A stretch of DNA of 57,163 nt from a virus (taxonomy: Duplodnaviria; Caudoviricetes): positions 1 through 57,163 of IMG/VR virus record IMGVR_UViG_3300020045_005021. One strand, written 5' to 3'. Under the pieces are notes generated by a model that was given only the letters and a program-made list of their open reading frames with translations, was not told the DNA's origin and made no database searches. Of this stretch, positions 732-21,746 are shown piece by piece; the first letter of the stretch is position 1; each line of letters begins with the position of its first letter. The translations under genes were made by a program, and so were the position numbers.

Positions 732-3700
732 TTAATATCCTTCAATAACAAACCAACCCGTAAAATTAGTTTGCCCAGATGTTGTAAATGCCGTAGTTGT
801 ACAGTCGTACGCACCTATAGTTCCACCCTGTATTGTCGCCCATATATGCGGTACATATGTGAATGTTGTTGGCAGTGTGTATGTAACACCACCACTTAAT
901 GCATTTGATCTTATTATGACTTTTTTATAGCTACCAGTTTGAAATGGCATTGACCCTACTATTGTTCCACTAGTTGATCCGTTAATGGTTGTTTGGGATT
1001 GGTTTACAATTCCGCTACCTGAATAATTAGGAATATTTATATTACTACCAGTCATTGTTGCTGGTCCGCTTGTACCCGTTGTAGTTAGTGTTATTGGGAG
1101 TTGTACGCCTGTAAGGTTTGAGCCACTTCCATAGAACGAAGGTGCTGTAACCGATGAGCTAAACATCCCGGTACCATTCACGGCTAATTTATATGACTGA
1201 TCTGTTTGGTACCCTATTAGAGTATTTCCATTTATCATTCTAATATATTCTGAATTACCATTAATTAGCGATAATCCATCGCCTCCTGCATTACCTATTG
1301 CCAATATATCTCCCTTATTTCCAGTAAGAGGAGAGCCTATACCATCCCAATATGAAACAATTGGAAGATATAACCCACCAGATAGTCTTTTAGAGTAAAC
1401 TTTATCATCGAAAGTAAAGCTTCCAGATGTATGAAGTTTCGAGTTTGGAGAAGTAATACCTATACCAATGCTACTTCCACTATCATATAATATAGAATTT
1501 GATAATACTCCATTCCATTTTGGAATATAGTTGTTTGATAAGCTTGAAGTAAGATTATTTCCGTTTAACAAAAATCCTGTTGCGTTTACGGTTGAGATAA
1601 AAGTTGCTGCGCCTGTAGTGCCATCATAGTAGTTATTTCAAAATCCGCCATTTACGCCAAAATATAATCTACCGTCAGAAAACGCTTGTATTCTCCATTG
1701 TTTGCCATTAGTAGCTGTATTATTCAACTCTAGTATCGAACTAGTAGTTGAATTTATGGTTGTCGAACCTAGAAAAGATGGCGAATTTGTGGTTGACAAT
1801 CTTTGATTTTCTATTGGCTGAAAATCACCAACAGAACTATTAGCCGCCGTGCCAAATGTTCGACCCTCCAAAACAGTTCCGGTAGTGCTTCCTAAAGGCA
1901 AATTAAACCCTGTGTTTTTGATAATTGCGGGCTCTTTGCTATTAAATGTGTTATAGTCATTAAAAGTCAATGCGCCAGATTGAGTAAGGCTTGCGTTTTG
2001 AAGCGAAATGTTTTGTCCTGAAATAGATAACCCATTTGCTGCCGTAACCGTTGTCGGAGTGTGCAGTAGAGCAAAGTCTTGATACTTCAAATATCCATCG
2101 CTTGTAGTTGTTGCAGCGCCTAATTTCGTTTTGATACTAGTCAATGTTTCATCGCCTGTATTAGTTCCGCTTGTTGCATTAACTACGCCAACTTGTGCGG
2201 ATGTTAAATGTTGGTACAAAGACTCTCCATTTTTATCTCTTAATTGTGAATGTCTTAATGCTAGCGGGGTATTTAAGTATGATGCAGAGCCATCACCAAC
2301 TTTATAGGACAATGTTTTATTAACTGTAGTAGTTGTTGTTGCATAAACCCGACAACCTAATCTGTCTGTAGCGTCAACCGTAAAACTAGGTTGAACTGTT
2401 TCAATGATATTGTTTTGATAATCTGTATTTTCAATCGTATTAGAATATATTGTGAACATGTCGGTTTCAACACCTGTAGATGACCTCCGATATTGAATGA
2501 TTTTAAATTTACTATCGCCAACACTTGAGCTAATAATACTATTTAACGTAAACCTCCATACACCAGCATCTACGGTTGTAACTCCGACTGGTTGTTCAAA
2601 GAGATAGGTATAAATTAACACCTCGTTGTTATTGCACGTAGCCGATGCGACTGTTTCGGTCAAATCAGCCGTTCCGCTTGTTTGTTTATAAGTTCCTACA
2701 ATCGTAGAAGTTATGTTAGTAAAGTATACGTTAGAAGCATAACCTCCACTACCCATAACCATTTCAGCCCATTGTCTATTACCATTAAGCCATTTAGATT
2801 CTGGGTTGATTGGAGTGGCCGGAAGTAGTGGTTCTTTCTCCAAAAGTCCTGGCACTGTTGGTAGATCAGCAGTGCCACTCAAATCTCCAGCAAGTTTAAC
2901 CTTACCTTTTGTCGTAGTTGTAGCATCTGGAGCTCCTGAAACTACTGCATCATCAACATATGCTTTAACTGCATTTTGTGATGGATATAATATGTCACTA
3001 GTTCCAAGAGCTGTGGACGTTGACTTATTTGAAATATTTTCAGCTCCAATATCGCCAGGATGTGTTGGAACTGCAATATTTATTTTTTTTGAATTTATTA
3101 TTAAATCAACACCGTTTCTTTGCACTCCATCAATTACATTTACCTGAGCACCAGATTCAATACTATCTAATTTTGTTTTTAAAGTGTTTGTAAAATCATT
3201 TGTAGACAATCCCCTTCCAGCCTCTTTATCAACTTTCAATGCATCTTGTTGATCTACATATATAGTTGTTGCAAGTCCAGTTGTAGATGGTATTGTTGGT
3301 TTATTTAGTATTTGAGAATCTCCACTAGTTGAATTTCAATCTGAATTTACATTTTTCTCTGCATCGGAAGGAGCATGTGCTGTTTGTGAATGGTCATAAG
3401 AAATTTTACCTCTATCACCTCTATAAGAATCTGCTGATGTTTCACCCAATTGAATAGGAGTTCTTCACCCAGCGTCTTGCTCGGTATAGGATAATTTGGT
3501 AACTACTTGTCCTGGCGCTCCATCAATTGGCAATACGCCATAACCAGGATCACCCTTATCGCCTTTTAATGCATCAATTAATTCAGCACTTCCAGTTACT
3601 GGGGCTGTAGATACATCTAATTCAATCATCATGTTTACTCCATCATTAGTTGTTGGAGTTTGATAATCTGTTGGTAGTCTTTCAAATAATATGCCTGCAA

Positions 3701-3965
3701 TAACAACCTGTCTTACACCATCAGTTCCATCAAGAACTACGATTACATCTCTATAACCTCTCATTGGAAACGTATCTTCGCTAGAAAGATTCATTTTATA
3801 ATATGGAGATTCATAAGTTATTAATGGAATACCAGTATCTAGATTTCCTATTAATACTCCACCAATATAAACCAACATATTAGTATTTAATGGAAATGTC
3901 TGACCAGTCTTTAATTTAAGTCATATAGAGAAGCTATCACCGCATTTTATGCTAATTGTGCGCAT
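732..3965 (-). CDS. Tail fibre / receptor-binding-like structural protein (1077 aa reading TGA as Trp)
   Basis: ORFs 3465-3878, 1638-3239 and 732-1571 share one frame and are separated only by TGA at 3921, 3465, 3336 and 1638; ATG at 3965, TAA at 732; NVNSD[TGA]NSTSGDSQILNKP matches the phage fibre motif SDWN...ILNKP; DATTTTKGKVKLA fibre repeat; Thr/Ser/Gly-rich. Confidence 0.8.
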
Positions 3966-3989
3966 TTTATTTATTTTAAAAATTAGTAT

Positions 3990-4015
3990 TCCAGCAACCA
4001 ATCAAAGTTGCTGGA
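3990..4015 (-). terminator. Hairpin between portal and fibre genes
   Basis: TCCAGCAAC-loop-GTTGCTGGA inverted repeat just after the portal stop; no clear U-tract. Confidence 0.4.
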
Positions 4016-4021
4016 CTTATA

Positions 4022-6412
4022 TTACTTAGTTGATTTAGACTTATTAATCTTTTTGATTTCTAAATCTTTTTCTTTCAATTGATTCTGAATATTGTCTTGA
4101 TTTATTCTATGAATATGTTCTCTATTTTTTAGAGACATTTCTTCATCTAATTTTTTAATTTTTAAATCAAGTTCATCTCTAGAATAATCTTCTGGCAATT
4201 CAGTTTGATTAGACATTTCCGCAATAAGAATTCTAGTTTCATTATCACGTTGATTTAATGTATCTTCAAGTTGGATTTTTTGTTGCTCAACATCTTTACG
4301 ATACTGTATTTCTTGTTGTTGAATTTTAAGATTATCTTGAGCCTCTTTGGATTTACGCTCATTCATATCCTTTTCATCCTTGTCGATAATTCTGTGAACC
4401 TCAGCCATGGATGGTGAAGATAATACTTTCATCATTGCACCAAATGACATCATTTGATTTTGCATAGCTGCATGAGCTAATTGAAGCAGCCCTTCCTCTA
4501 ATCTTTGAGATTCATTGCTATTGTCAAGAACTAATCCATAATCACATTCAGAAAATTCATCCCCATCAATATCTGCAATTTTAGACGCTCCGTCAGACAA
4601 TATATATTGAAACTTTTTAGAACCACCTTTTAGTGCAGCCTTAGAAGTTTCTAAGAAGCATTCAAGTGCCCTCTTCTTTACATCATCATGCTTGGCAAAT
4701 AACCATTCTGTAATGTGACTTGATTGTAAATTAGATCGCTCAACACCGCCCACAGTTTCAGAAGAGGACACCTGTCCTTCTCGTTGCTTAGAAATTCCAG
4801 CAGCTTCAGACATTTCCATCTTTACAAACTCTAAGAGATTAATATGTTGTTGGATATAATTACCTTGCTCCAAATCTAGAACTCCAGAAGATTGTTGCAT
4901 CATACCAGATAATTTACCTGTAGCAGCACCGATATTTCCCTCTTTGAAACTATCAATAACTGCAATGTGCATTGTCTTAGCATAGTGTAACCACTTCTCA
5001 ACCTCCCAGCCTTTTGGAACCATAGCTAAATCAAGCTTAACCATCTTTCCTCAGTTAGCAGCTATAGCCTTATTTAAGCGGTCGTGGAGAGCATTATATA
5101 AGTAATTGTAGGGTTTCATTACATCTACTAAAGAAAATGGCTTAGTATCGTTTATATTATATACTGAACCTACAAATCCAAAGTGACATCTTGATGGATT
5201 AGATAATCTGTTGTATTGGACAACTCTTGGTCGCATGTTTACATAGATTTCTTTACCAATCTTAGTACCTTCCCAAGCTTCGTTAATCCAAAATACTTCT
5301 TCTTCCTGGCCTAGGTCTTTATCACATTTATATGTTTCTGGATAGAAGTCAAACTCTTCATCGCCAGTTTCAGCATTATATGACTTTACTTTTTTAATCT
5401 TACGTTTAGAACGCCAATATGTTCTTACAACACGAATATTACCATTATTGTCAAAGTAGTTTGTTGTAGCAGCAGAACCAGTTGTTTGAGCAAATATCGA
5501 ATAGTTATCTATAACAGAACCATATCCACCTTCGAATCCATTTATTTCATTTACATTAATAAATGCATTTCGCTCATCAATATTGGACATGCTATCACCA
5601 GAATAAACTTGTGGTAAGTTTTCTAGGTATTCACAATCTGCCTCTGTTAAGACATCGTAAAATGTATCTATAATTCTACCTGGACTTCAGAAGTCTATAT
5701 ATGTTAGAATATCAGCATCTTCAATTCTATTAGAGAATCCGCTTTTAAACGTATGGCATTTTAATGGGTTAATTCTTTCAAAAGTAGGTTCTCCTCCAAC
5801 AATGTCACATTGGTAAATCTCTTCACCTACAATCATTGCATCCATGAACCCATCGTTAAACTTATCTTTAATTGCAAGTTCTTTAATGTAATGATTAAGA
5901 ATTAAATTACCACGTTCTTCTCTAGCATCTTGCCATTCGTAAGTGTAGTAATACGACATTTTATCCATTTCAGAATTAAAAGATTCTTCATCTGGATGTT
6001 CTGCTTTGATAGCATCTTGCAAACTGCCCATTAATTGGGTCTTCTTATTTTCCTCAATTTCAGAAACAGCATTGGGGTTTGTTATAATCAAGTGTCAGTC
6101 AAACCTACGTTTACGCTCTTCTCCAGCAAGTAAGTTAAGTTTAGCCTTCATTACTGGATAATGCTGAATATTTTCTGGAACATAACTAGCGTCTACGTTG
6201 TCTGGGTTTAGAATTAATGACATATCATTAAGGTCTAAAATTCCATTAACTAGATTATAGTTTATTCTTTTGCGAATAAATGATTTACGTATGACTGAAT
6301 CTGAGTAATACACACGTCGATCGCTTCAGTCACATATTGATTTTCTTCACTCAGCACTCTTTGCTGAAAAAGACAGTTTTTGCCTTGGGAAGGAACTTAC
6401 TGGATTACTCAT
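4022..6412 (-). CDS. Portal protein, crAss-like (796 aa reading TGA as Trp)
   Basis: Four ORF fragments in one frame joined by TGA at 6347, 6326, 6095, 5687 and 5051; N-terminus MSNPVSSFPRQKLSFSAKSAE[W]RKSICD[W]; motifs RRFD[W], DF[W]SPG, WINEAWEGTKIG, AN[W]GK, GISKQREG typical of crAss-like portals; downstream of terminase. Confidence 0.9.
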
Positions 6413-7397
6413 TATTTTCTATTGTTTTATTATTATAATAATCATCCTTTTTTATAAACTTAAAACGATTATATATTATTTTTTTGTTTTTAATTGCAAT
6501 TCCTATTGTACTGGGATGTATACCATATGTTCTACTTATTTCTCTTATAGAAATAAATTCTCTTATATAATTCCCATTAATATCTAATTCGACAATTTCC
6601 ATACCAATAAGTGCCGCATTCCTTACTCTATCTAATCCTGAATCTGAAAATCAAGATCCATTATTTATGTTTTTTCTAGACATAGTATCTCTATCGGCAT
6701 TATGGATTCTTGAGTTACTTAACTTCTTTCTAGTCTCATCTGATATGTTTTTACTACATTCAGATATTTTCTTTTTTGTTTCATCGGTATGATGCCTACC
6801 GGTTGACGACAAACTTATCTTTAGTTTAGTTTCATCTGATAGTTTTTTGCCGGTATGAAATTCTTTTAATATTTTTTTATGTTCCTCTGTAACGATCCTT
6901 CCAATATTTGATTTTCTAGTAGCATCTTTTACGTGTTGTGGCATTGGTCTTCCTGTATTTGCCTTTCTTGATTTTTCATATGCAATTTCAGGAAGTCTTT
7001 TGCCCTTTAATCTATCAGACATTTTTTTCTTAGTCTCTTCACTTCTATTACTTTGAGCAAATCTCATTTTAATTAAAGTTTCTTCAGTGCATTTTCCTCC
7101 AGTACCACCAAACCTTATATTATAGCCACTGTAAACTGAGTCATATTTTTTAATGCAAAACTTCTCCATTGCATCTAAAGTAATATTCAATCTGGATCTA
7201 TTATCTGAGTTATATTGGAATAATATTTCCAATTTAAAATTTTCAAATCCATATTTAGTAAGAGCCCTATGTAGTTTTCATTGTTGAGTACATTTTAATT
7301 TTGAATAATTTCTCATTCGTATATTTAAATGTATTGTTTGACCAATATAGCATTTACCACTTGGACTTGTAAGTTTATATATATTTCCAATTAACAT
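6405..7397 (-). CDS. Free-standing GIY-YIG homing endonuclease with NUMOD3-like repeats (330 aa, 2 TGA)
   Basis: ATG at 7397, MLIGNIYKLTSPSGKCYIGQT; TGA at 7278 and 6651 in frame with ORFs 6651-7232 and 6405-6602; SEETKKKMS-type repeats; C-terminal HTH. Confidence 0.85.
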
Positions 7398-7420
7398 TTT
7401 TGCAACAATTTATAAATTTA

Positions 7421-7454
7421 TGCAAAGGTACAATTAGTATTTGGATTTACAAAA
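7421..7454 (-). promoter_or_regulatory. Bacteroidota sigma-type promoter (-33 TTTG / -7 TAnnTTTG)
   Basis: Minus strand TTTTGTAAATCCAAATACTAATTGTACCTTTGCA upstream of the GIY-YIG and portal genes. Confidence 0.75.
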
Positions 7455-7455
7455 C

Positions 7456-7491
7456 AAAAAAGTGCCTACTACCAGAAAAGTAATAGGCACT
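7456..7491 (-). terminator. Rho-independent terminator after terL
   Basis: AGTGCCTATTAC-loop-GTAGTAGGCACT followed by a T run on the minus strand. Confidence 0.7.
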
Positions 7492-7504
7492 ATATTTTAA
7501 TTTA

Positions 7505-10500
7505 TTAGAATTTTAATTTATTCCCAGTTGAAATATCTTTGCGATAATTCTTTTCAAAGAATGCATCTTTGCCAAGATATCCAACATCTCTATTTGCTCC
7601 AGCCTCCCTAGGAGATGTGTCACCAAGCAACCTTAGTTTATCTTCTCGGATAAGCATAAGCATAATGATCGCATCATGTCTATCGTAGTTTCCATCTGGA
7701 GTTCACATTGCAGTTTCTTGTAACAATCCTTTAGACCAAATCTTTTGATAGTTAAACACATTAACTACTTCTTCAACTTGCATCCCATCAATTTCTTTTA
7801 TGTTTATTTGTGGTGTTGATCTTAAGAGATAATCCCTATAACATCTTCTACCATATGGGGCTATAGAACCATAGTTTCCTGTGCCTTTACTTTTGTTGCC
7901 GTATTGCCCACCCTTAACCATCTCCTTATCTTTAAGAAATTCTAAAGTGTCTGATAGTAAATATAAGCAGTTATGTTTTGACATATAAGCAAAGAAACCT
8001 TTCTTATTATTCTCGTAGTTGCACTCTGCATTATACATAAGTAACGCTAGTCTAGCATTTTCATAAGCGTCATCGGCAAACATAGGTCTACCAGTATATT
8101 CAAATACAAGTTCATCGGTCCATAAATCATGGATAAATAAACTAAAGAGCGAAAGCGTATCTGAGGAATCGTCATCATCAGTAATGTTATCGTACAAGTT
8201 TTTTATCATGTACTTCTGGGAGTCACCTCCATACCACAGTTCCTCAATGTGGATACTTCCGTTAATTCGGACCAGCTCAGCATATATTATCATCCAAAGA
8301 TTCTTTGGATGGTGGGCACTCGTGGCGGATTATATTCTACTTTCGTAGGTTCTCCACTATGCGTTACAATGTTTAATACTTTTAAATATTAAATTATCTC
8401 GATGTTTTCTAATTACTTAGACTTTCTTCGATTTTGCCCACTTATTCAATTAGTGTTACCACTAAAGGGTGCTAAATCAACACGTCAGCCCCAGCTATAT
8501 ACCTTCCTCATGGAACATTGCCAGAGCTACTTTTAACTGGCATATGCTTTATACATATAGCGCCTTCAATTTTATTATCTTTATGTGGAAACTCCGTTAT
8601 ATATTTTAAATCATTATCAGGTTTGTATTCTACTTCACCACTTTTCGATAAACTTAATCTACCAATCCACATATCATCTGTATATTTTGGATTAAGATTA
8701 ATTTCATTTATTACATCATTAAGTTTGTCTGTCGGATATAATGAACCATCACGCTTCATTATAGCATCTTGGATTGTAAAGGCGGTCTCAGCTTTACGCC
8801 TAGTTAACTGCAATGGATCGGATGAATTATATTTAAGATTAATCCTATATTCAATCTCAGAGATTAAAGCTCCAACAACATCCGATACACCATCTTCATT
8901 ATAGTACCCTTTAGAGTTTACATATCCTGGATAGAAAAATATTGTTCGTTTCTTTCCATTAGCTCCTTTATCTCAAAAGTTTGGCAGAGAATATACATTG
9001 TAACCATCTGGGTATGAGAGCATTTCAAGTGCGCCCTGGAAGTCAGATCCTTCCGAGCCTCCAGTTCCGCAACCAATTGCTTGTCCAAATGCAATATTAC
9101 CTTCTTGAACATTTGGTATGGAAGTTTGCCATATATCTAGAAATTTAGGAAAGCTACCAAACTCTTCAAATAACATAGCCGAACTACGTTTTCCACGAAG
9201 CTTGTCACTATCATCCTTAATAGCAACTCCAAGAACCTCATTGAGAGTTCCCATTTCTAATCCAGTATCCTGATCTAAATATCCAGCCCTTCAATTTAAG
9301 TCAGACATGGATTGCTTTAGTTTCCTAGATGGAAATTGTGTGTGTTTAGCACAGTGAGTAATACCATCAATAAATTTATTCAAAGTACCATCTTTAATTA
9401 AATATTCTTTCTGATAGGCTGCAACAAGAGACTTTACTTTACTTCTAGCTAGCTCATTTTCTCCAAGAATAAAGTTCTTTGTAAGTTTAGATCCAAAGGC
9501 GTACGATTTAGAATTGTGAGTCTGTACAAAATCTCCAATAAGATATGAATGCGATTCGTTATCAACAGTTACACACTTGGATTTCTCTATGTGAGAAAAT
9601 TCTATATTTACAATTCTAGTTTTATCTCTTTTGCTTTTAGAATAACCTTTTGTGTATTCTGATATAGCATTTAATTTTCTTGGAAGTCTAAATATTCCAT
9701 CGTTTGTATATATCCATAAACAGTAACAGTCTTGACATTCAATATAAACTCCATCTTTTTTATACCCAGCTTTTTGTTTTGTGTAATTACAGTTATATCC
9801 AAGACTTCTAGCAATAAATGCAACATCCTTTATAAGCCTTTCTGACACAGAACTATATGTAGGTCTACCATTAGATAAACCTCCATCGGTATCCATTAGT
9901 CCCTTTAGAATATTTAATCTAACTTCTTTTGAATTATATTTGTATTCATCTGGAATAAATTTTCCTTCTGACTTTTGCATAAACAATCCAACAGATTTCA
10001 AATAATCAGAAACTCCATTTATATTTATAGAGTGTCCAAATTTAGTCTTTCCAGTATTGGTTTTATATGGAATATAATCTCTATATATTTCCATATCGTC
10101 TTTATGAGCAGTAAATGCAACTGTATTCACATACTCTGGATGCCGAAATGTTCCATCGCCAATTAATAATCCCATAGTATATGGGTCAATAAAAACATCT
10201 TTACTATCAAAATCTATAGACTTATTAGATGGTATAGAATAAACACACTCAAATCCATTTGGATTTCTTTCAGTAATTTTTCTAGGACGTTTATAATCTG
10301 AGATTATATCTTTTAAAGACTTAGTTTCTATTCTATCATCTTTTCATCCATGTTTATGTACATTCCATAAATGATTTTCAGACGAATAGACTTCTCTTCC
10401 ATCTTTTAATGTTATCTTATAAACATCAATTTCATCATCAAATGGTATATCTATTACAGTTGTAATATTTCCATCATCACCATATAATTTACTTCCAATG

Positions 10501-11150
10501 TTTATACTACCTCATTCTTTAAATCCAGTTGGAGTTAATACATCTTGCGAATATGGATGACTCTTCCCTCTTGAAGCTATTTCGATGCAGTGTTTTGCTC
10601 CCTGAAAGTCATCGTACATTCCACCATATCTAGCCTGATGCCAATAATGAAATCTTCAATAAACACCCTCTCATACTTCTGGAAAATCTATAATACGTTC
10701 ACCAACCTTAGTTCCTTTTTTAATTTTGGTTTGAATAATTGGAAAATAATTCAAATAAAAATACATGTCCCCAGTTATTCATTCACCATCTGATTCACGA
10801 ACTAATCCATTTCAGCATCGCTGCACTTCCCTTTTTAGTCACTGCCCAAACTCAGATTGCGGATTTGGGTTTGGCATAAGCTTTGTGTAACAACCATATT
10901 TCTGAAAGTGAATAGCTGCTTGACGAAAATAATTCATGTCAATCAATAAGTGCGGATCACACAAGTCTATTAAAATTCTACCAGACTTATCTCTTTGCAA
11001 GTCTTTAGCAAACTTTCTTTTTGGAGATATAAGGCGCTGAATAAACTCAACATTATTAATTATATCTAATAAGTCCGTTCTCGCTTCATCCTTTAAACTG
11101 CCAAGTAATTCGTCTGTTAATTGCGTTTGATAAATATTTGTTTCTATCAT
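7505..11150 (-). CDS. terL: Terminase large subunit; exons 11150-8480 and 8178-7505; intein-containing; 11 in-frame TGA (1114 aa precursor, about 764 aa mature)
   Basis: Walker A ASRGK|SKS around the intein, LRGKR...FEEFG Walker B, GTGG, nuclease motif RYIAGADVYDDD after splicing, NYENNKKG, GNYDR; TGA at 10839, 10812, 10779, 10671, 10656, 10512, 10344, 9291, 8973, 8508 and 7703. Confidence 0.92.
8179..8479 (-). mobile_element. ORF-less group I intron in terL nuclease domain
   Basis: P1 GTGTT/AGCAC with a U-G pair defining the 5' splice site after 8480; P3 GTGGGCA/TGCCCAC; P7 GCATA/TATGC; terminal G at 8179; removal restores the frame and gives GAD-V-Y-DDD. Confidence 0.85.
9513..10562 (-). 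mobile_element. Intein (350 aa) with LAGLIDADG homing endonuclease in the terL Walker A motif
   Basis: Starts SHPYSQDVLTPTG, ends VTVDNESHSYLIGDFVQTHN followed by extein Ser; LAGLIDADG blocks MGLLIGDG and LKGLMDTDG. Confidence 0.9.
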
Positions 11151-11152: not shown

Positions 11153-11917
11153 CTATTTAAATAATCCATCAAAATATTCCTTGCTAACCCATCTAAAACC
11201 CAAGTGAGAACCCCGACTTCCAGTAAAACATGCAGATATTCTTTTTGGCATTGTATTTATAGAAGTGGCTGCATCTGATAAAGATTTAAATTTTTCTATT
11301 AAATTATAATCCATATCAAGTTTATACACTTCTTTTGCTAGTATGTATTTAAATCCATCTGGCTTTTTTCTTCCGATTAATGCTTTCGATAATTTGTTTT
11401 TATGCTCATCTGATAATTTAATTCCAATTCTAGAAAGTCTTGATTTTTCTACCTGGTCTTTTGGCTTTTTAATTCCTTTTTGTTTCTCTGAAATTATCTT
11501 TTTTACTTCTTCTGATACAACTCTACCAATATTGGCTTTTAATAATGCAGCAGCAGTTTGCGGTAACATTTTCTTACCTTTGTGTGATATTGATAAATTT
11601 TCTTTATGCTTTTCCGATGCAAATCTATTGTTACCACCACTCACCATATTATATCCATTTGGATACATTGTATTTTGAATACGTATCTCAGATTCCTCTA
11701 ATTTATTTAAAATATCAATTACATTATCAGATTCATCTAATTCGTGAATTATTTCTAATTTAAAAGAATCAAAACCATATTTTAATATAGCATTATAAAT
11801 TCCGTATTGAGCTTTGCAATTCGCATTCTTATATTTTATCATTCGTCTTTCAACATTTACGCTCTGACCAATATAACTTTTTCCACTTGGGCTTGTCAAT
11901 TTATATATTCCTATCAT
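11153..11917 (-). CDS. GIY-YIG homing endonuclease with NUMOD repeats
   Basis: MIGIYKLTSPSGKSYIGQS...NGYN; NUMOD3-like SEEVKKIIS and SDEHKNKLS; C-terminal GFRW. Confidence 0.9.
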   Translation of the reverse strand: MIGIYKLTSPSGKSYIGQSVNVERRMIKYKNANCKAQYGIYNAILKYGFDSFKLEIIHELDESDNVIDILNKLEESEIRIQNTMYPNGYNMVSGGNNRFASEKHKENLSISHKGKKMLPQTAAALLKANIGRVVSEEVKKIISEKQKGIKKPKDQVEKSRLSRIGIKLSDEHKNKLSKALIGRKKPDGFKYILAKEVYKLDMDYNLIEKFKSLSDAATSINTMPKRISACFTGSRGSHLGFRWVSKEYFDGLFK

Positions 11918-11920
11918 TAT

Positions 11921-12460
11921 TTATTTGAATAATTGATCAAAACCTTGGTCCAGTACTGTCATTGCGCGATCGCCACGAGCATTAGATATTTCTTCAACCT
12001 CTCTAACAACCTTTCTTTCAAGATCCGATAGTTTATCCGATAGGGACATCATTTTAATAATTATATCAGTTCTCTTGACGAACGTCTCATCATTTATTTC
12101 AGACTCTCTAAGATACTTTTTAATCTTCTCTATCTCAATTCTAATTTCATTTACTAAATCAGACGATGTTGTATTTGTCATCAGCATATAAACATCTATA
12201 GCTTTCTGCAAATCACTATCTATTTTAAACTTACTGTCAAACCCAATAAGTTCTTTAACCCTTTCAATTCTCTCTTGCTCATCTACTATAAATTGTAAAT
12301 CACTTCTTGGGTCATATACAAAATATATAAATGATAATTCTTTTTCTAATTGACTTTTACCAACCGTTCTATCTCTTTGATCAAGCCGTTTAAAGGCTTT
12401 TAAAGTGTACACAAGTGGGTCTACAATCAATTTATAATCAACTCTTTTTAGTAGCCTCAT
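11921..12460 (-). CDS. Conserved crAss-like protein upstream of terL (possible small terminase)
   Basis: 179 aa, FIYFVYDPRSD motif, helical C-terminus; position next to terL. Confidence 0.5.
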   Translation of the reverse strand: MRLLKRVDYKLIVDPLVYTLKAFKRLDQRDRTVGKSQLEKELSFIYFVYDPRSDLQFIVDEQERIERVKELIGFDSKFKIDSDLQKAIDVYMLMTNTTSSDLVNEIRIEIEKIKKYLRESEINDETFVKRTDIIIKMMSLSDKLSDLERKVVREVEEISNARGDRAMTVLDQGFDQLFK

Positions 12461-12511
12461 TCTATTATATAGTTTAGGGCTGACCAGAATAAACCGACCA
12501 GCCCTTTATTA

Positions 12512-12916
12512 TTATTTAATTAAACTTTCATTAAATTCAACATACTCATAATCATCAATCTTTAATTCAATATCAGATATATCAACAAGCATGTGTTCTC
12601 TACCATCCAATACCATAACAGGCATTTCATAATAAACCTGCTTATCATACTCTTCATCAATTCCAAAGTTATTCTTCTTGACATTTTTTACTTTTTTATA
12701 ATTCTCGTAAGACAAAGCGACCAATAATCCTTCTGTAATCCCTCGTTCAATACAGCTTTTTGATGGACTTACGATTGTCTGTACTTCCTTAATTCTACCA
12801 GTCATTGATACATCCTCAATTCCATCAGTAGTTGTTTCTTCGATAGTGTATCTATCACATGTTACTATAACACCAGTTGACATTGGTGTTGCCTTTTTAA
12901 TACTAAGTATTTTCAT
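12512..12916 (-). CDS. GroES-like co-chaperonin-fold protein
   Basis: IKKATPMSTGVIVT N-terminus and VLDGREHMLVDISDI C-terminus resemble GroES strands; GroEL gene nearby. Confidence 0.45.
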   Translation of the reverse strand: MKILSIKKATPMSTGVIVTCDRYTIEETTTDGIEDVSMTGRIKEVQTIVSPSKSCIERGITEGLLVALSYENYKKVKNVKKNNFGIDEEYDKQVYYEMPVMVLDGREHMLVDISDIELKIDDYEYVEFNESLIK

Positions 12917-13205
12917 TCTTCTCCCTATATATTTTTTTGTAATTATTTATCTTTAAAATTCTATCTCTATGAGTATATAACTTTCCAATTGAGCCAATAT
13001 TAAAGCTCAATGGTTTAATTATCTCAGTATCCTCTTCTATTAAATCTAATTGTAGATTTTCTATTGATTCTTTTATATTCTCCCAGAAGCTTGAGTAAGC
13101 CAATACAACTACTTGAACTGGTATGTTTAGTTTAATCGACACTTGTTTCGCCATCTCCAGTATCTCTCTGTTTGAGTATGTCGCTCTCGATCTTGTACTT
13201 TTCAT
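12903..13205 (-). CDS. IHF/HU-like DNA-binding protein
   Basis: Two helices followed by FNIGSIGKLY, resembling the HU/IHF beta-arm start; typical gene near crAss-like packaging genes. Confidence 0.5.
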   Translation of the reverse strand: MKSTRSRATYSNREILEMAKQVSIKLNIPVQVVVLAYSSFWENIKESIENLQLDLIEEDTEIIKPLSFNIGSIGKLYTHRDRILKINNYKKIYREKNENT

Positions 13206-13593
13206 TTATATCGAAAATAAGTGTTAGTCTATATTGTGTTGTATCTTTTTGTATGTTAGGAATATAATGCTTATCTATCTTTTTACCATCCATTACGCCA
13301 GAACGCCTTAGCTTTGATACTAAGATATTAAACTGTGGTACTGTCAGTCCAACAGCATCACGTATTTCCTTTCTAATATCTATGCTATTAAGTACATTAT
13401 CAAGCATATTTTCATCTCTAATAATCAAAGATAATTCATGTCTCTTTGCTAGAAATGAAGCTAATACTTGACGTTCTGATTTAGTAAGTTTGTGCAATGG
13501 AGTTAAGAATGATAACCATTTATAAAAGAATCCAATATCCAAAGCGCATGGTACTTTGGCGATATTGGAATTAGCGTTTAGATTCACAGTCAC
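13132..13593 (-). CDS. Winged-helix-like hypothetical protein
   Basis: 153 aa; LTKSERQVL...IRDAVGLTVPQFNILVSKLRRSGVM is wHTH-like. Confidence 0.5.
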   Translation of the reverse strand: MTVNLNANSNIAKVPCALDIGFFYKWLSFLTPLHKLTKSERQVLASFLAKRHELSLIIRDENMLDNVLNSIDIRKEIRDAVGLTVPQFNILVSKLRRSGVMDGKKIDKHYIPNIQKDTTQYRLTLIFDINEKYKIESDILKQRDTGDGETSVD

Positions 13594-13870
13594 TAGGTGT
13601 TAGCTTTGCGCTATCTGTTGGAGTTTTTTCAATTCTTAGAATAGATATTAAATCTTTAACCGAATCGTTGAAAAACTCATTATCAACGGCAATAAACAAA
13701 TCTTTATTTTCAATTACTTTAAATAAATATTCAATTCGCTTAAAGAAATCTTCACCTGCATGTTTTTGTAATTCATTTCTAAGAAATGTATTCTGTTGTT
13801 GTAATTGATTACAAACATCTTTTAATTCATCATAAGTCAATACTTTTTGATCTTTATTTTCTTCTCCCAT
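13571..13870 (-). CDS. Hypothetical coiled-coil protein
   Basis: 99 aa ORF in a tight operon; LTYDELKDVCNQL. Confidence 0.6.
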   Translation of the reverse strand: MGEENKDQKVLTYDELKDVCNQLQQQNTFLRNELQKHAGEDFFKRIEYLFKVIENKDLFIAVDNEFFNDSVKDLISILRIEKTPTDSAKLTPSDCESKR

Positions 13871-13874
13871 TGTT

Positions 13875-14099
13875 TTATTTTTTAAATTTAATATTTAATC
13901 TTTTATTCTTTAAATTCTCAATCTCTTTAACGCCATACTTTTCTGTAACTGCAATATCTGTACTTCCACAATCATCACAATAACATGGAGTTGGGTCTCC
14001 ATCAATATCATCTCCATTACCAGATGAATTTAAAATTCTCATTGATAAGCATGTTCTGCAATACCAAATAGGTTCTTCTTCGTAATCTATTTTACTCAT
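13875..14099 (-). CDS. Small zinc-finger protein
   Basis: CRTC...CDDC Cys pairs. Confidence 0.65.
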   Translation of the reverse strand: MSKIDYEEEPIWYCRTCLSMRILNSSGNGDDIDGDPTPCYCDDCGSTDIAVTEKYGVKEIENLKNKRLNIKFKK

Positions 14100-14481
14100 T
14101 TATTTTATTTTTCTTAGATTCTAATATTTCTTTCTTATAATCAGCAAATGACATCACTAACCTTTCGTCTACACCATTTACGTAATTTTCTTCAGTTTCT
14201 TTAGATAATATGATACAGTTTATTAGCATTTGAATAAAATCTTCCGTAAATTCATCTCTAGTATCTACATTATATGGAGTCTTAGAATATTGTTTTATTC
14301 TTAAAACGGAAGAATCTGACGGCAAATACATTGTCTTACCGTAATAAACACATTTAAACTCTTCATCATATCCGTTATCTTTATCTAAAATCTTCCAACT
14401 TATGGAAGATTCAAAATAATCACCGTCAAATGCGGTATTTAAATACTTATCTATCTTATTTAATCTCATACAAATTATCAA
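14092..14481 (-). CDS. Hypothetical protein
   Basis: ORF in operon; true start probably the MRLNK ATG. Confidence 0.5.
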   Translation of the reverse strand: MIICMRLNKIDKYLNTAFDGDYFESSISWKILDKDNGYDEEFKCVYYGKTMYLPSDSSVLRIKQYSKTPYNVDTRDEFTEDFIQMLINCIILSKETEENYVNGVDERLVMSFADYKKEILESKKNKINE

Positions 14482-14668
14482 CTATTACGTTTCCCTCGTA
14501 GATTGCTATTAAATCTGTTGATTGTTTTGGATTATGAATTAATATTTCATAATCGTCCATTCCTACAAAGTGTTTTACTAATTCTTTTATTTCAGATATT
14601 GTTATATCGTCTACAAATACATTAATAGTTTTTTCTTTTGGATCTATATTTATTTGTTTTGCTACCAT
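14456..14668 (-). CDS. Hypothetical protein
   Basis: 70 aa ORF, ATG start, operon spacing. Confidence 0.5.
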   Translation of the reverse strand: MVAKQINIDPKEKTINVFVDDITISEIKELVKHFVGMDDYEILIHNPKQSTDLIAIYEGNVIVDNLYEIK

Positions 14669-14671
14669 AGT

Positions 14672-14941
14672 TTAATATTCAAATACTTCTTCATAAGTAA
14701 GTTCCCAAGTTTCTTTAAATTGTATATTTCTACCATTACCAATTGGCTCCCATTCTATTCCACGATAATACATATGTGTATCAACTCCTACCTCTACAAC
14801 CGTATAATAACCAGTAGGTGCTATTCTAGGCTCTGGAATAGTTTGTTCTAATTCTCCAGTATTCTCATTGACTGTAACTCCAGGTCTACCAACTCTAGCA
14901 GTCATAATTGGATCAAAAAAATGTAATATTGTTTTTCCCAT
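14672..14941 (-). CDS. Hypothetical protein
   Basis: Start moved to ATG 14941 (MGKTILHFF) because the upstream part of the track ORF overlaps tRNA-Thr. Confidence 0.55.
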   Translation of the reverse strand: MGKTILHFFDPIMTARVGRPGVTVNENTGELEQTIPEPRIAPTGYYTVVEVGVDTHMYYRGIEWEPIGNGRNIQFKETWELTYEEVFEY

Positions 14942-14956
14942 AATATTGTTAATTTG

Positions 14957-15028
14957 AGCAAGTAGATGGAATCGAACCACCGCTATCTGATTACAAAACA
15001 GATGCACTAACCACTATACTATACCTGC
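14957..15028 (-). tRNA. tRNA-Thr(TGT)
   Basis: GCAGGTA/TACTTGC acceptor, D-loop AGTGG, anticodon arm TCTGT-TT TGT AA-TCAGA, T-arm GGTGG TTCGATT CCATC. Confidence 0.8.
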
Positions 15029-15239
15029 AAATTGTGAGACTTATTACCTCTCACACTTCCTGCGCAAATTGCAAATTTAATTGCTGACTACATGCATTTA
15101 GTCATTTGGGAAGACCGCTACATTTAATGTCTATTAAGACAACAGAGGTTATGCGGCGCACAACACATTAAATTTAAAACAATCAAAAATGAATTAAAAG
15201 ATATACTTTCACAAGTACTTAATTATGAAACAATTATTT

Positions 15240-15318
15240 GGTCTACATATTGGAGTCGAACCAATAATTACGGATTTTTTAAGTCCCTCAGACTGCCACC
15301 AACTGAATGAATGTAGAC
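15240..15318 (-). tRNA. tRNA-Leu(TAA)-like with enlarged anticodon loop (possibly pseudo)
   Basis: GTCTACA/TGTAGAC acceptor, TTGG TTCGACT CCAA T-arm; anticodon region GGGACTTAAAAAATCC has two more A than the canonical GGGACTTAAAATCC. Confidence 0.55.
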
Positions 15319-15390
15319 TTTTAAAATTAATAAAGAACCCTCTAGTCCGTGCCCGCTTAGGTTTTTTGAGCTAAACTTTATTAATTATTG

Positions 15391-15463
15391 CATGCGCAGA
15401 AGGATTCGAACCCCCGTCGTTCTGGGTTGAAACCAGACAGTCTGACCACTGGCTTATACGCAT
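15391..15463 (-). tRNA. Opal suppressor tRNA, anticodon TCA (probably tRNA-Trp(UCA))
   Basis: ATGCGTA/TGCGCAT acceptor, G73 discriminator, anticodon arm TCTGG-TT TCA AC-CCAGA (anticodon 15428-15430), T-arm GGGGG TTCGAAT CCTTC, short variable loop. Confidence 0.92.
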
Positions 15464-15503
15464 ATGTGCAGTTGATTACGGCTCAACTAGCAAAACCTTT
15501 TAT

Positions 15504-15695
15504 TTAATTTGTTACTTCGCTTGAATATGATGCTATTTTAATTTCATCAAAAGATATATTGTCTTTAAACTTTAAAATACCACCACCTAAAAAACATTCA
15601 GTAAAATTATATTCTATTCTATTTAATTCTAGCAGAATAACTTTTTCTAACCAATTTGGATTGTCATTTTTACTTTGTTCGCAACGTTTTCTCAT
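15504..15695 (-). CDS. Hypothetical protein
   Basis: 63 aa ORF directly after a promoter. Confidence 0.4.
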   Translation of the reverse strand: MRKRCEQSKNDNPNWLEKVILLELNRIEYNFTECFLGGGILKFKDNISFDEIKIASYSSEVTN

Positions 15696-15714
15696 ATCTT
15701 TATTTTTGAATTAT

Positions 15715-15748
15715 GACAAAGGTAAATATAATAATTGAATTATGCAAA
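15715..15748 (-). promoter_or_regulatory. Bacteroidota-type promoter upstream of the tRNA cluster
   Basis: Minus strand TTTGCATAATTCAATTATTATATTTACCTTTGTC. Confidence 0.7.
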
Positions 15749-15771
15749 CTATTTAACATTTATTTTCAGTA

Positions 15772-17313
<1,542 letters not shown>

Positions 17314-17469
17314 CTATTTACTTTTATGATTAAACACTGCTATTAATTTATCTCCATCAAATATTTCAAACTTCCTTACAATTAAATCTCCATCCCAGTT
17401 GTTTATAAACTTGAAGAAACTTTTGTAATCGTTGAAATGTATTACGCCATCTACTTTATCGAAACTCAT
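17314..17469 (-). CDS. Small hypothetical protein (51 aa)
   Basis: ATG 17469 to TAG 17314 fills the gap between neighbouring genes. Confidence 0.4.
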   Translation of the reverse strand: MSFDKVDGVIHFNDYKSFFKFINNWDGDLIVRKFEIFDGDKLIAVFNHKSK

Positions 17470-17478
17470 ATATTTATA

Positions 17479-17866
17479 TTAATTTATTCTCATTTCATCC
17501 CATTCGACATTACCATTTTTAATCATCTCTTTTATTTTTTTTTTGACTCTGACTAAGTTTAGCTTCACCAGATTTAATCTCCAAGAACACAACCTTATCC
17601 TCCTCGAAGATAACATAATCTATTGGATTTCCAAGAAAATGCGTTCTCTTTGGATCATATTTAAAGTCTTTTAAGAATGGTGCAAGGTTTTCTGATATCT
17701 GTCCAAGTCTAACCTCTGATGATTTCTTCTGGGATAATAATTTGCTATAATTATCTTTTAATATCTTATTCTCATCTCTAGCCATTGAGTAATTACCTCT
17801 AGTCCAATTGCAATAAATTGCCATAATTACAAGAATAAATAATAGTACATATATAATTAATTCCAT
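17479..17866 (-). CDS. Holliday junction resolvase-like PD-(D/E)xK endonuclease with N-terminal TM; frameshifted at an A10 run
   Basis: LGQISENLAPF, FLGNPIDYVIF, FLEIKSG; removing one A from the run at 17535-17544 gives the C-terminus QKKIKEMIKNGNVEWDEMRIN. Confidence 0.75.
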
Positions 17867-17867
17867 A

Positions 17868-18263
17868 TTACTTTTTATTTTTATACGATTTAAACTCACA
17901 CATACATTTTACCATCCATCCAACAAGATAGGCATTAGCTTCACTTCTCATAGACAGTTCTTTCTCATTAATCCAACCCCATAATATGTCAGCCATATGT
18001 GTAGCCTCATGTGCCATTGTGTCAGCAGTAAAAGATTTCATATCATATACAGATAGCAATAATCCATATTTTTTAGTCTCTTTCAGCATTACTGGTCTAT
18101 CCCATACTGCGGCATTAGAATTCTTCATTTCTACTGGATGAAACTCTTCGTCTATTCCACCAAAGTTATCAGTTAGAAAACCTACTGTTGGATTTTTAAT
18201 TATCCATAACTTTAATGGATATATTACTGGATCGAATTCGTGTATTTGTATTTTATTATTCAT
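17868..18263 (-). CDS. Zincin-like HExxH protein
   Basis: AHEATH...EANAYLVG motif. Confidence 0.65.
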   Translation of the reverse strand: MNNKIQIHEFDPVIYPLKLWIIKNPTVGFLTDNFGGIDEEFHPVEMKNSNAAVWDRPVMLKETKKYGLLLSVYDMKSFTADTMAHEATHMADILWGWINEKELSMRSEANAYLVGWMVKCMCEFKSYKNKK

Positions 18264-18281
18264 ATTTTATTTATAAACTTC

Positions 18282-18314
18282 TGCAAAATTACAACTAATA
18301 AATGAATATACAAA
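18282..18314 (-). promoter_or_regulatory. Bacteroidota-type promoter
   Basis: Minus strand TTTGTATATTCATTTATTAGTTGTAATTTTGCA. Confidence 0.65.
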
Positions 18315-18346
18315 ACATTTATGGTTAAAAGTTTAATTATATTCAA

Positions 18347-18379
18347 TAAAAAATCCACAACTATTTCTAATTGTGGATT
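18347..18379 (-). terminator. Hairpin terminator
   Basis: AATCCACAA-loop-TTGTGGATT followed by a T run on the minus strand. Confidence 0.6.
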
Positions 18380-18438
18380 AAATGAGTTGCAATCAGTTCT
18401 TGTGGTATGATTTACTACTACTGTTATCTGCTCAGAAC

Positions 18439-18592
18439 AAATGACTTAGACTTGAACGGAGACTTTTTCCTCATTTTATAGTGCAGTATAAATGACAAAG
18501 ACTTACACAACACTGTTGTTTTATAGTACAGATTATAATGACAAAGACTATAAGGGCACTCTCAACATTTATAGTCAGTTAGTATAGACTTA
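18439..18592. repeat. Degenerate direct-repeat array (TTTTATAGT..AATGACAAAGACT units with unique 13-20 nt spacers)
   Basis: Full units at 18474-18505 and 18519-18550, degenerate copies near 18439-18453 and 18568-18592. Confidence 0.6.
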
Positions 18593-18684
18593 TTCTTAGA
18601 TAAGTACGCAAGGCTCAACATACCTCGAACATCTTTTATATTAACGTGGAGAGATGAACTCCATTCCATAGATTACACCGATAT

Positions 18685-18906
18685 CTATTTAATTATATTT
18701 ATCAAACAAAATCCTCCATTAGGACTAAAAAATTTATCGTCTATAAAGCATGACGAGTGTTTAGACAATATAATATCACTTTCATTCACATCTACTTTTA
18801 TTCCATTTATATAATTTCTTAAATTTAAAATGGATGCAAAATATATAAATGCTGTAAGATACTCTCCAACATCATTAGATTTTGCTATTTCATATTTGTG
18901 GTCCAT
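18685..18906 (-). CDS. Hypothetical protein
   Basis: 73 aa ORF, ATG start. Confidence 0.35.
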   Translation of the reverse strand: MDHKYEIAKSNDVGEYLTAFIYFASILNLRNYINGIKVDVNESDIILSKHSSCFIDDKFFSPNGGFCLINIIK

Positions 18907-18910
18907 GCTC

Positions 18911-18955
18911 TTAGCACTTCTTACCAGTGCCTTTTCCTTTAGGTTTAGCTTTCAT
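18911..18955 (-). CDS. 14-aa Lys/Gly-rich basic peptide MKAKPKGKGTGKKC
   Basis: ATG 18955 to TAA 18911, AT-rich leader, fills the intergenic gap. Confidence 0.45.
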   Translation of the reverse strand: MKAKPKGKGTGKKC

Positions 18956-18974
18956 ATGTATATTTATTATTAGT

Positions 18975-19508
18975 TTATAAATCTCCAAATTTTTCCTGAA
19001 TAAACGCTAATATCTCGGAGTATAATAATTTACAATCATTAGTCCTTGAATTATCAAATCTTAGAACAAAATAACCAGCACGTCTTAAATGCATTGACCT
19101 TAAATCATCTTTAATCTTTTGCTCGCCAGTATAATGATACCCACCGTCTAATTCTATAATAAGATTATATTGTTTAAAGAAGAAGTCTGCTATATAGAAT
19201 TTTTGTTTGCAATCGACGCTTACATACACAATCTTTTGGAATTTATAAGCAACCATGTTCTTATCTAAGAACTGTTTAAACTTCAATTCAGCACCAGTTG
19301 CTTTAGAAATCAATTCTTTTCTGAATCTTTCAGAAATATCTTTTGCAGATTCATTAGCTACGGTAGGCTTGTTATTTTGCTTTTGTTTTACTGGCTTATT
19401 ATTATTTCCATAGACAGTTGATATCTGTGGACTATTATGCAAATATGCATTACTCTTGCTTTTTGAAATTTTCTCAAACTTCTCTCGCGCTTTACTACTT
19501 CTACTCAT
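18975..19508 (-). CDS. DUF559/Vsr-like endonuclease
   Basis: ATGAELKF, FQK, FYIADFF, LIIELDGGYH, DDLRS, VLRFDN. Confidence 0.85.
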   Translation of the reverse strand: MSRSSKAREKFEKISKSKSNAYLHNSPQISTVYGNNNKPVKQKQNNKPTVANESAKDISERFRKELISKATGAELKFKQFLDKNMVAYKFQKIVYVSVDCKQKFYIADFFFKQYNLIIELDGGYHYTGEQKIKDDLRSMHLRRAGYFVLRFDNSRTNDCKLLYSEILAFIQEKFGDL

Positions 19509-19983: not shown

Positions 19984-20045
19984 GAGTGGGATACCCCCCC
20001 AACAACCCCCTCCACTAATTTTTGAGCGACGGGTGTCCCCCGTCA
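19984..20045. other. C-rich tract at the strand switch; candidate genome end or packaging/terminal-repeat region
   Basis: GAGTGGGATACCCCCCCAACAACCCCCTCCAC and GACGGGTGTCCCCCGTC in an otherwise AT-rich genome, at the divergence point. Confidence 0.35.
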
Positions 20046-20108
20046 ACATTGCTATACGCGTGTACATTATTATTAATTAATCAAGCTGTTAGGAGCAGCA
20101 CAATCATT

Positions 20109-20381: not shown

Positions 20382-20390
20382 TACTATATA

Positions 20391-20425
20391 GCATTGCACC
20401 TTCGGGTGCTCTGCTTATTTTTTTT
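20391..20425 (+). terminator. Rho-independent terminator with UUCG loop
   Basis: GCACC-TTCG-GGTGC then a T run. Confidence 0.75.
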
Positions 20426-21674: not shown

Positions 21675-21677
21675 ACC

Positions 21678-21717
21678 AACAAGAGTTTCCAAACCTATTT
21701 ATAGGGGAGGAAACTTA
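21678..21717 (+). repeat. Intergenic structured repeat, copy 1
   Basis: AACAAGAGTTTCCAAACC-TATTTATA-GGGGAGGAAACTTA. Confidence 0.7.
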
Positions 21718-21746
21718 AATTATTAAACTCTTTAAAATATTATATT

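Follow-up and report, generated by a model that had tools for sequence, protein, structure and literature searches.

Evidence for TGA read as tryptophan in the packaging and virion genes of a crAss-like phage that encodes its own probable opal suppressor tRNA

The TGA-containing gene block

The DNA analysed here, 57,163 nucleotides of the IMG/VR record IMGVR_UViG_3300020045_005021 and hereafter called the window, is the entire contig of its assembly and, at 57 kb, covers part of the genome of a crAss-like phage (Crassvirales, Steigviridae-like). Our subject is a block of genes on its minus strand (732-11150), coding for the large terminase subunit (terL), a homing endonuclease, the portal protein and a fibre-like protein, in which TGA codons appear to specify tryptophan (Trp), together with a phage tRNA of anticodon UCA, tRNA(UCA), that may read them. 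When the minus strand of 732-11150 is read with genetic code table 4, in which TGA is Trp, it gives five long frames with a total of 22 in-frame TGA, namely 732-4001 (1089 residues, 4 TGA), 4022-6412 (796 residues, 5 TGA), 6405-7397 (330 residues, 2 TGA), 7505-8293 (262 residues, 1 TGA) and 8472-11150 (892 residues, 10 TGA), whereas under table 11 the same stretch breaks up into about 20 short minus-strand open reading frames (ORFs). The original prediction, made from the letters of the window, had counted 11 TGA in terL, two in the GIY-YIG gene, five in the portal gene and four in the fibre gene and had proposed that genes be called anew under both codes; the new calls give the same counts, the same total and continuous frames.

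The fibre-like or minor tail gene (732..4001, minus strand) matches the minor tail protein family phrog_8780 and the Pfam domain DUF5907, and its TGA codons have their first bases at 3923, 3467, 3338 and 1640. It probably starts at the ATG at 3965 rather than at the TTG of the 1089-residue frame, since the closest homologue aligns from residue 13, and all four TGA remain inside the gene thus shortened. The portal gene (4022..6412, minus strand) codes for 796 residues and carries TGA at 6349, 6328, 6097, 5689 and 5053 beside seven TGG. Between it and terL lies a free-standing GIY-YIG/NUMOD homing endonuclease gene of 330 codons (6405..7397, minus strand) with TGA at 7280 and 6653 and no TGG. 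The terL gene itself is in two exons, both on the minus strand. Exon 1 (8480..11150) holds the ATPase domain and an intein and has TGA at 10841, 10814, 10781, 10673, 10658, 10514, 10346, 9293, 8975 and 8510, and exon 2 (7505..8178) holds the nuclease domain, with TGA at 7705 and the true terL stop, TAA, at 7505-7507. The 11 TGA of terL are thus spread over both exons and the intein, in which two of them lie.

That these frames are open by chance is most improbable, since not one TAA or TAG occurs in frame in their 3369 codons, against 22 TGA, and with the density of these two stops in the off-frame readings of the same genes (490 per 6738 codons) the probability of finding none is 2.6e-9 to 2e-36 for the individual frames. 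Furthermore, the profile phrog_6547 spans portal residues 6-794 as one stretch, through all five TGA (E 6.8e-137). The minus-arm ORFs examined end in TAA (17) or TAG (4), 21 of 21 altogether, in agreement with the earlier remark that no minus-arm gene checked ends in TGA, and between 11150 and 19700 there is no minus-strand ORF of at least 50 codons that ends in TGA. The base following the codon is A in 13, G in five, C in three and T in one of the TGA, and A in eight and C, G and T in five each of the TGG.

About half of the Trp codons in the block are written TGA (22 TGA, 23 TGG, 3369 codons), while outside it 150 TGG and no sense TGA are found in approximately 12,000 codons. The upstream genes of the minus arm (11153..19508), which comprise a GroEL-like chaperonin, nucleases, small ORFs and two tRNAs and read the same under either code, have 0 TGA and 14 TGG in 2323 codons, and the replication and metabolism genes of the plus arm (20022..56937, plus strand) have no internal TGA and 136 TGG in 9697 codons; Fisher's test for the difference from the block gives p = 9e-4 and p = 3.7e-16, respectively. 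The only plus-arm TGA within the counted codons stands directly before a TAA (43882..43887, plus strand) at the end of a glutamine-amidotransferase-like gene (42994-43887), which terminates under either code, and TGA is also the last codon of a few small plus-arm ORFs. TGA use sets in at the start of terL (11150), and the onset is the same in all eight close relatives examined, in which the upstream genes, where covered, are nearly free of TGA and terL, the portal gene and the following fibre gene carry it. Within this pattern the TGA content, as judged from these genes, turns over quickly and gene by gene: the portal gene of the related locus L002 (L002:5226-7616), 93% identical to that of the window, has 0 TGA and 12 TGG, and the terL and fibre genes of the same locus have eight and four TGA.

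Residues aligned with the TGA codons

To see which residue stands at these codons in homologues, as had also been proposed, 80 related loci were collected from IMG/VR by their portal, and the portal frames were aligned with all stop codons masked, the 68 below 68% identity being treated as distant homologues and the remaining 12 as close relatives. At 12 of the 14 TGA columns of the portal and the TerL extein, Trp is the commonest residue of standard-code homologues, and at the other two it is phenylalanine or tyrosine. In the distant portal homologues the five columns read, in order, W in all 66 that have a residue there, W in 63 and F in three of 66, F in 52 and Y in 14, W in 68 of 68 and W in 62 of 68. 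The fourth and fifth are the motifs DF[W]SPG (residue 242) and AN[W]GK (residue 454), both of which had been picked out beforehand as places where Trp is expected and indeed turn out to be Trp sites. The third, RRFD[W] (residue 106), had been named along with them but proves to be an aromatic column (F 52, Y 14 of 68) and not a Trp column; the 12 close relatives have TGA in nine cases and TGG in two. At the window's TGA columns these close relatives have TGG or TGA, one of them having TTT at column 29, and at five further portal columns, of which four are Trp columns, they carry TGA in place of the TGG or TTC of the window.

The TerL extein gives much the same picture, since W is the commonest residue at eight of its nine TGA columns, with counts of 40/62 at column 104, 29/62 at 113, 58/62 at 124, 42/62 at 160, 30/62 at 165, 56/60 at 620, 16/64 at 881 and 35/67 at position 197 of exon 2; column 726 has Y in 37 and F in 24 of 62. 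In addition, TGA and TGG swap among the close relatives, and the columns at which the window has TGG behave like those at which it has TGA, so that the TGA sites look like ordinary Trp sites. Contigs from four public sequencing runs, which contain a fraction of 0.07-0.20 of the words of the stretch and do not bear on expression or splicing, were also compared, and in such contigs TGG is read at the TGA codons that start at 10658 and 10673. Of the two intein columns, 213 has W in 17 of the 27 related inteins, and there is no conservation at 269.

For the fibre protein repeats confuse a tally from best alignments (W in 31 of 110 at position 222), and a motif count was therefore used instead, according to which the residue W222 of the motif SDWN..ILNKP, the remaining one of the sites proposed at the outset, is Trp in all 121 instances of the motif, itself found in 28 of 120 homologues. 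The two closest fibre homologues (P0006 and P0007, 83% identical) have Trp at 27, 179 and 222, but they may themselves be code-4 gene calls and are not independent evidence. Fibre homologues come from Flavobacteriia and Bacteroidota. In the endonuclease at 6405-7397, W40 aligns with a Tyr of the paralogue described below and W249 lies in an unconserved stretch; since a search of the PDB sequences with this protein gave no match, W40 can be judged against the paralogue only. Glycine, the reading of TGA under table 25, comes first in none of the TGA columns and reaches at most 6 of 27, in one intein column. Taken together, the alignments support the reading of TGA as Trp in the block.

The probable suppressor tRNA and the competing explanations

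Inside the TGA-free stretch upstream of terL, about 0.3 kb downstream of the GroEL-like gene, the window encodes a tRNA of 73 nucleotides with the opal suppressor anticodon UCA (15391..15463, minus strand; found by ARAGORN, and with 53.5 bits by the Rfam model RF00005). Its acceptor, T and D stems have 7, 5 and 4 bp, its variable loop is short, and it contains A1-U72 and G73, both of which belong to the identity set of the Escherichia coli tRNA-Trp. At gathering level a search of the whole window with Rfam finds two tRNAs only. A selenocysteine tRNA (tRNA-Sec, selC) was considered and rejected, since the label 'SeC' given by ARAGORN follows the anticodon only and the form does not match: the 8-bp acceptor, 5-bp T and 6-bp D stems and long variable arm of a tRNA-Sec are not the combination found here. 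Among the relatives, a tRNA(UCA) is found downstream of GroEL in six of the six TGA-using loci that reach this slot (at least 3.5 kb upstream of terL) and in none of the five standard-code loci checked, and TAG-using relatives of the same portal family have a tRNA(CUA) in three of five cases.

It is thus very probable that the phage tRNA(UCA) reads UGA as Trp and thereby gates the packaging and virion genes, where we infer both the charging and the timing. Early in infection the host would terminate at UGA by way of release factor 2, and the genes outside the block would be translated correctly, because they contain no internal UGA. The tRNA(UCA) would then be transcribed, be charged with Trp by the tryptophanyl-tRNA synthetase (TrpRS) of the host and outcompete termination at UGA; only then would full-length TerL, portal and fibre be made, and DNA packaging and virion assembly would both depend on and be timed by the suppressor. 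A dependence of virion assembly on readthrough would follow from the fact that the first TGA truncates all three proteins, which would end at codon 104 in TerL, 22 in the portal and 27 in the fibre. The intein and the homing endonuclease downstream of terL share the code of the block, and as mobile elements using this code they would have their products gated likewise. The terL gene would further need RNA splicing of a 301-nucleotide intron and protein splicing of its intein.

Several points weigh against this reading. The amino acid charged and the timing are, for this phage, both deduced from sequence. Eleven UGA codons in one gene would need very efficient suppression, and no helper is seen in the incomplete window. 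The argument from A1-U72 and G73 rests on the identity rules of E. coli, and by similarity the tRNA(UCA) is not assignable to Trp, since its best matches among 345 tRNAs, those of the related phage loci, are tRNAs for Asn and Met (67-68%). Some TGA columns are furthermore not those of a Trp residue: portal 106 is an F/Y and TerL 726 a Y/F column in homologues, TerL 881 has W in only 16 of 64, intein 269 is unconserved, fibre 179 has K in 20, Y in 16 and W in four among 69 aligned homologues, fibre 788 is N and T in the only two alignments, and residue 249 of the endonuclease aligns with K in the paralogue. Finally, structural genes further downstream in the related locus L001 are without TGA (a gene for 1040 residues, for example, has 0 TGA and 12 TGG), so that the notion of all late genes being recoded fails for this lineage, in which the recoded block may be short.

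An alternative explanation would be that the tRNA(UCA) is irrelevant or inactive and that UGA is read by a near-cognate tRNA-Trp(CCA) of the host or by another factor whose gene lies outside the contig. The window does represent only a part of the genome, and recoding is reported not to coincide in every case with a detectable suppressor tRNA (PMC7886860). On the other hand, natural readthrough of the eleven UGA codons of terL would presumably leave almost no full-length product, and the occurrence of the tRNA in all six TGA-using relatives that reach the slot and in none of the five standard-code ones speaks against an irrelevant gene. We consider this explanation improbable, even if it fares best among those put forward here.

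It is more improbable still that the host itself uses TGA as Trp, as Mycoplasma and Spiroplasma do (table 4), and that the phage simply follows its host without any switch. The frames are indeed open under table 4 and the window is AT-rich, with 27-37% G+C, but an AT-rich code-4 genome would be expected to use TGA widely, and the roughly 12,000 codons outside the block include no internal TGA beside 150 TGG. Moreover the phage has a tRNA(UCA) of its own, and its relatives infect Bacteroides and Flavobacterium, in line with the origin of the fibre homologues. Since Bacteroides, Flavobacterium and the Bacteroidota are standard-code bacteria, the host of this phage would, to judge from the hosts of its relatives, use the standard code as well.

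The possibility that TGA stands for some other residue, be it Gly (table 25), Cys, Ser or selenocysteine, is just as improbable. The tRNA-SeC label from ARAGORN and the fact that tRNAs for Ser and Sec have G73 as their discriminator too could be taken to favour it. Yet Gly, Cys and Ser are never commonest at the 14 TGA columns of the TerL extein and the portal, and the nearest they come is in the intein, where Ser ties with Lys (5/23 each) in the unconserved column 269 and Gly reaches 6/27 in column 213. In addition, TGA and TGG, which are a single transition apart, alternate in close relatives, and the length of 73 nucleotides, the 7-bp acceptor stem and the shortness of the variable loop set this tRNA apart from a tRNA-Sec. 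That the TGA codons are real stops, in decayed genes of a defective phage or through sequencing or assembly errors, has only the table-11 reading in its favour and can be set aside with near certainty, since of the three stop codons only TGA is found in frame, and this at Trp columns, since the same sites are TGA in independent contigs and since profile matches run through them.

A suppressor that reads UGA as Trp also agrees well with what is known from other phages. That opal-to-Trp reassignment occurs in late genes of crAss-like phages, as the original prediction had stated, is described in PMC7886860 and bioRxiv 10.1101/2021.08.26.457843, and the window is therefore a new example of an already published phenomenon, late-gene TGA-to-Trp reading with a suppressor tRNA. 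Yutin et al. 2021 (PMC7886860) report 243 crAss-like phages in which TAG is reassigned to Gln or TGA to Trp. In these the code switches at short phylogenetic distance, and core genes contain inteins and group I introns, among them TerL inteins with the recoded stop codon inside; the reassignment is mostly confined to late genes and accompanied by suppressor tRNAs (PMC7886860; bioRxiv 10.1101/2021.08.26.457843). With the TGA-recoded phages of that study (PMC7886860) the present one has in common TGA codons in terL, portal and other structural genes at which homologues have Trp, a phage tRNA(UCA), standard-code early genes, insertions in core genes (here an intein and a group-I-like intron) and a code that varies among close relatives. 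It differs from its nearest classified record, cr108_1 (portal about 60% identical), in that the terminase and portal of the latter are annotated as single genes, and from the known TGA-recoded crAss-like phages in that recoding runs from terL through the fibre gene and is absent from the further structural genes of L001. An opal-recoded phage, the Zeta phage Lera, has also been described (PMC12386605).

The proteomic proof of recoding given by Peters et al. 2022 (PMC9523058) concerns code 15 (TAG-to-Gln) only and not TGA-to-Trp. The crAss-like phages with code 15 likewise reassign a stop codon in their late genes and encode a suppressor tRNA but differ from the present case in the codon, the amino acid and the tRNA. 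Borges et al. (bioRxiv 10.1101/2021.08.26.457843) have put forward a timing model for recoding and find a detectable suppressor in 35% of TGA-recoded genomes, and their Jade and Agate phages resemble the window in that TGA is read as Trp in structural genes (in theirs also in lysis genes), in that the suppressor tRNA lies in a standard-code region upstream and in that recoding is proposed to time the late genes. The 'code change module' of these phages consists, however, of a suppressor tRNA, TrpRS and release factor 1, and neither a TrpRS nor a release factor was found in this window; the phage lineage and the likely host phylum are different as well. The codon has the same meaning in the table-4 bacteria, where a tRNA-Trp(UCA) reads it. 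In Mycoplasma and Spiroplasma, however, the whole genome and the cell use this code and release factor 2 is absent, whereas here one gene block is recoded in a presumably standard-code cell.

For annotation the consequence is that the standard code loses the terminase, portal and fibre to about 20 fragments, so that TGA must be read as Trp from terL onward, and that one intron and one intein must in addition be removed from terL. With this phage, a non-gut-like lineage related to the Steigviridae joins those in which expression of the packaging and virion genes appears to be gated by an opal suppressor that they encode themselves, and the window provides a recoding onset that lies at a single gene boundary, is conserved among relatives and goes along with a rapid turnover of TGA and TGG, as the 93%-identical portal without TGA illustrates.

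Mobile elements, the suppressor slot and the surrounding genes

The terL gene is a mosaic. A LAGLIDADG intein of 350 residues (9513..10562, minus strand; residues 197-546 of the exon-1 frame, with TGA at 10514 and 10346) interrupts the P-loop of TerL, the junctions reading ASRGK|S...THN|SKS. It lies in frame at a conserved site, ends in His-Asn followed by Ser and contains a homing endonuclease domain (Pfam LAGLIDADG_3 and Hom_end), and its first residue is Ser, related copies having Ala. In most relatives residues 1-201 of the terL frame join directly to residue 547, and in L002 the site is an uninterrupted ASRGKSKS. An intein-less allele is also seen in a DNA contig, in which 1075 bases are skipped with 25 letters between, a net difference of 1050.

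Further downstream, where the nuclease domain has its AGxD motif, terL contains a structured, group-I-like intron of 301 nucleotides without any ORF (8179..8479, minus strand). The first terL frame stops at a TAG (8472) inside it, and homology resumes at 8176 in another frame. Alignment to intron-less relatives and to a second copy in the locus L016 places the boundaries after U 8480, the last exon base, and after G 8179, the last intron base, and removal of the 301 nucleotides restores ADVYDDDSS as in the intron-less relatives. The terminal exon U is paired in P1 and the last intron base is G, as is typical of group I, the copies of the window and L016 have a common fold with 12 compensatory pairs, and a third locus, L082, matches in a 20-nucleotide core. 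The Rfam model RF00028 scores 27.2 bits (E 3.8e-5), below its gathering score of 50 and only when 361 nucleotides are searched alone; no intron model was found in an E-value search of 6300-8700 or in the whole-window search at gathering level. In a contig from a DNA run 8178 is joined exactly to 8480, which represents an intron-free DNA allele and is no evidence of RNA splicing. The contigs lacking the intron and the intein thus indicate that element-free alleles exist as DNA, and the spliced, intein-free TerL would have about 764 residues, compared with a profile of 758 positions.

A second GIY-YIG homing endonuclease gene (11153..11917, minus strand; 0 TGA, 1 TGG) lies between terL and a conserved gene of 179 codons and is the last TGA-free gene before the block. 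The two GIY-YIG/NUMOD endonuclease genes that flank terL are paralogues with 37% identity. Relatives lack these endonuclease genes and have the 179-residue gene directly next to terL, and only L008 of the 80 loci has an endonuclease-related gene upstream of terL (36% identical).

The slot that holds the suppressor is more variable than its surroundings. Between 15262 and 15640, some 0.3-0.4 kb around the tRNA(UCA), the window has no detectable DNA similarity to L003, L004 and L005, while the flanks align with them at 75-95% identity, and where portals are about 90% identical the tRNA(UCA) gene reaches no more than 68% identity to that of the window, which looks like cassette replacement. In two sister phages the same slot contains a long tRNA(UCA) of 94 nucleotides with the extra-arm loop UUCCAAC (L004:4359-4452 and L005:3543-3636), a loop with the geometry of the Trp anticodon loop (U, CCA, A), and the TGA codons of these two phages sit at invariant Trp columns. 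In a further such tRNA, of 93 nucleotides, the identical loop sits on a stem that differs by compensated changes (L085:188-280, minus strand), and elsewhere the variants CUCCAAA or GUCCAAA are found (L145-L261). The tRNA(UCA) of the window itself has no extra arm.

A scan of viral contigs that placed no constraint on the loop gave at least 118 loci, and among the matches listed there are at least 21 distinct tRNA(UCA) of at least 84 nucleotides according to ARAGORN, of which 15 carry UCCAA in the extra arm and one more UCCAU; all of these 16 have G73, and the other five look like true tRNA-Sec. By comparison, UCCAA occurs in the extra arm of none of 43 Leu, Ser and Tyr tRNAs from crAss-like loci. 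A separate metagenome scan, which required the loop motif and is therefore biased, also caught true tRNA-Sec genes and was not used for frequencies. No description of a CCA-bearing extra arm in a tRNA(UCA) was found in the literature searched, which includes the accessible parts of PMC7609411 and PMC5389517 and leaves the supplements of the recoding papers outside its scope. It is possible that the spare CCA arm of the L004 and L005 tRNAs is a handle for TrpRS. Tentatively, and as a suggestion that is rather less likely to hold than to fail, the code-switch device might be a swappable module, that is a fixed slot holding unrelated tRNA(UCA) genes, with the suppressor under diversifying pressure, for instance from host defences that target tRNAs, and the recoding of terL, portal and fibre would then be a packaging checkpoint and no general late-gene code. 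In any case the window and its sister phages offer a natural comparison of short and two-armed tRNA(UCA) in a near-identical genetic background.

The window as a whole consists of two divergent arms with opposite GC skew, of which the minus arm covers 125-19508 and the plus arm begins at 20022, and the last gene in the direction of the fibre is one gene past the fibre gene. Profile searches that assign the portal to phrog_6547 and TerL to phrog_6681 give the Crassvirales signature. A tblastn search with the portal returned 144 phage records, with Crassvirales leading and with cultured Bacteroides and Flavobacterium hosts, and the best classified record is the uncultured phage cr108_1 (Steigviridae, Pipoluvirus; portal 60% identical), in whose record (MT774385.1) GroEL, small genes, terminase and portal follow one another as they do here. 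The GroEL-like chaperonin gene (15772-17313, minus strand; phrog_5725, E 1.1e-152; Cpn60_TCP1), just upstream of the suppressor tRNA, is syntenic with that of cr108_1. A tRNA-like element lies between the two tRNA genes (15241-15318, minus strand). It has an 8-bp acceptor stem, a perfect T arm, a 3-bp anticodon stem and a 9-nucleotide A-rich loop, is not called by ARAGORN and reaches a sub-threshold 20.6 bits (E 0.11) with the Rfam tRNA-Sec model, and it may be a decayed tRNA.

Searches with PHROGs on 72 ORFs of the window and with Pfam on 51 of these found no release factor, TrpRS or other code-change gene, the contig being incomplete. A scan of the window for promoters gave 28 sigma-70-like sites (31.5 expected) and six terminator-like sites (1.0 expected), and no site that usefully marks the boundary of the tRNA or of terL. 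The plus arm encodes, according to PHROGs, a helicase, a primase, a Sak4-like protein, an exonuclease and an amidoligase/amidotransferase cluster. The latter, an early-arm cluster at 40891-47977 (plus strand), comprises genes for gamma-glutamyl cyclotransferase-like, RimK-like, glutamine amidotransferase, COOH-NH2 ligase and amidoligase proteins.

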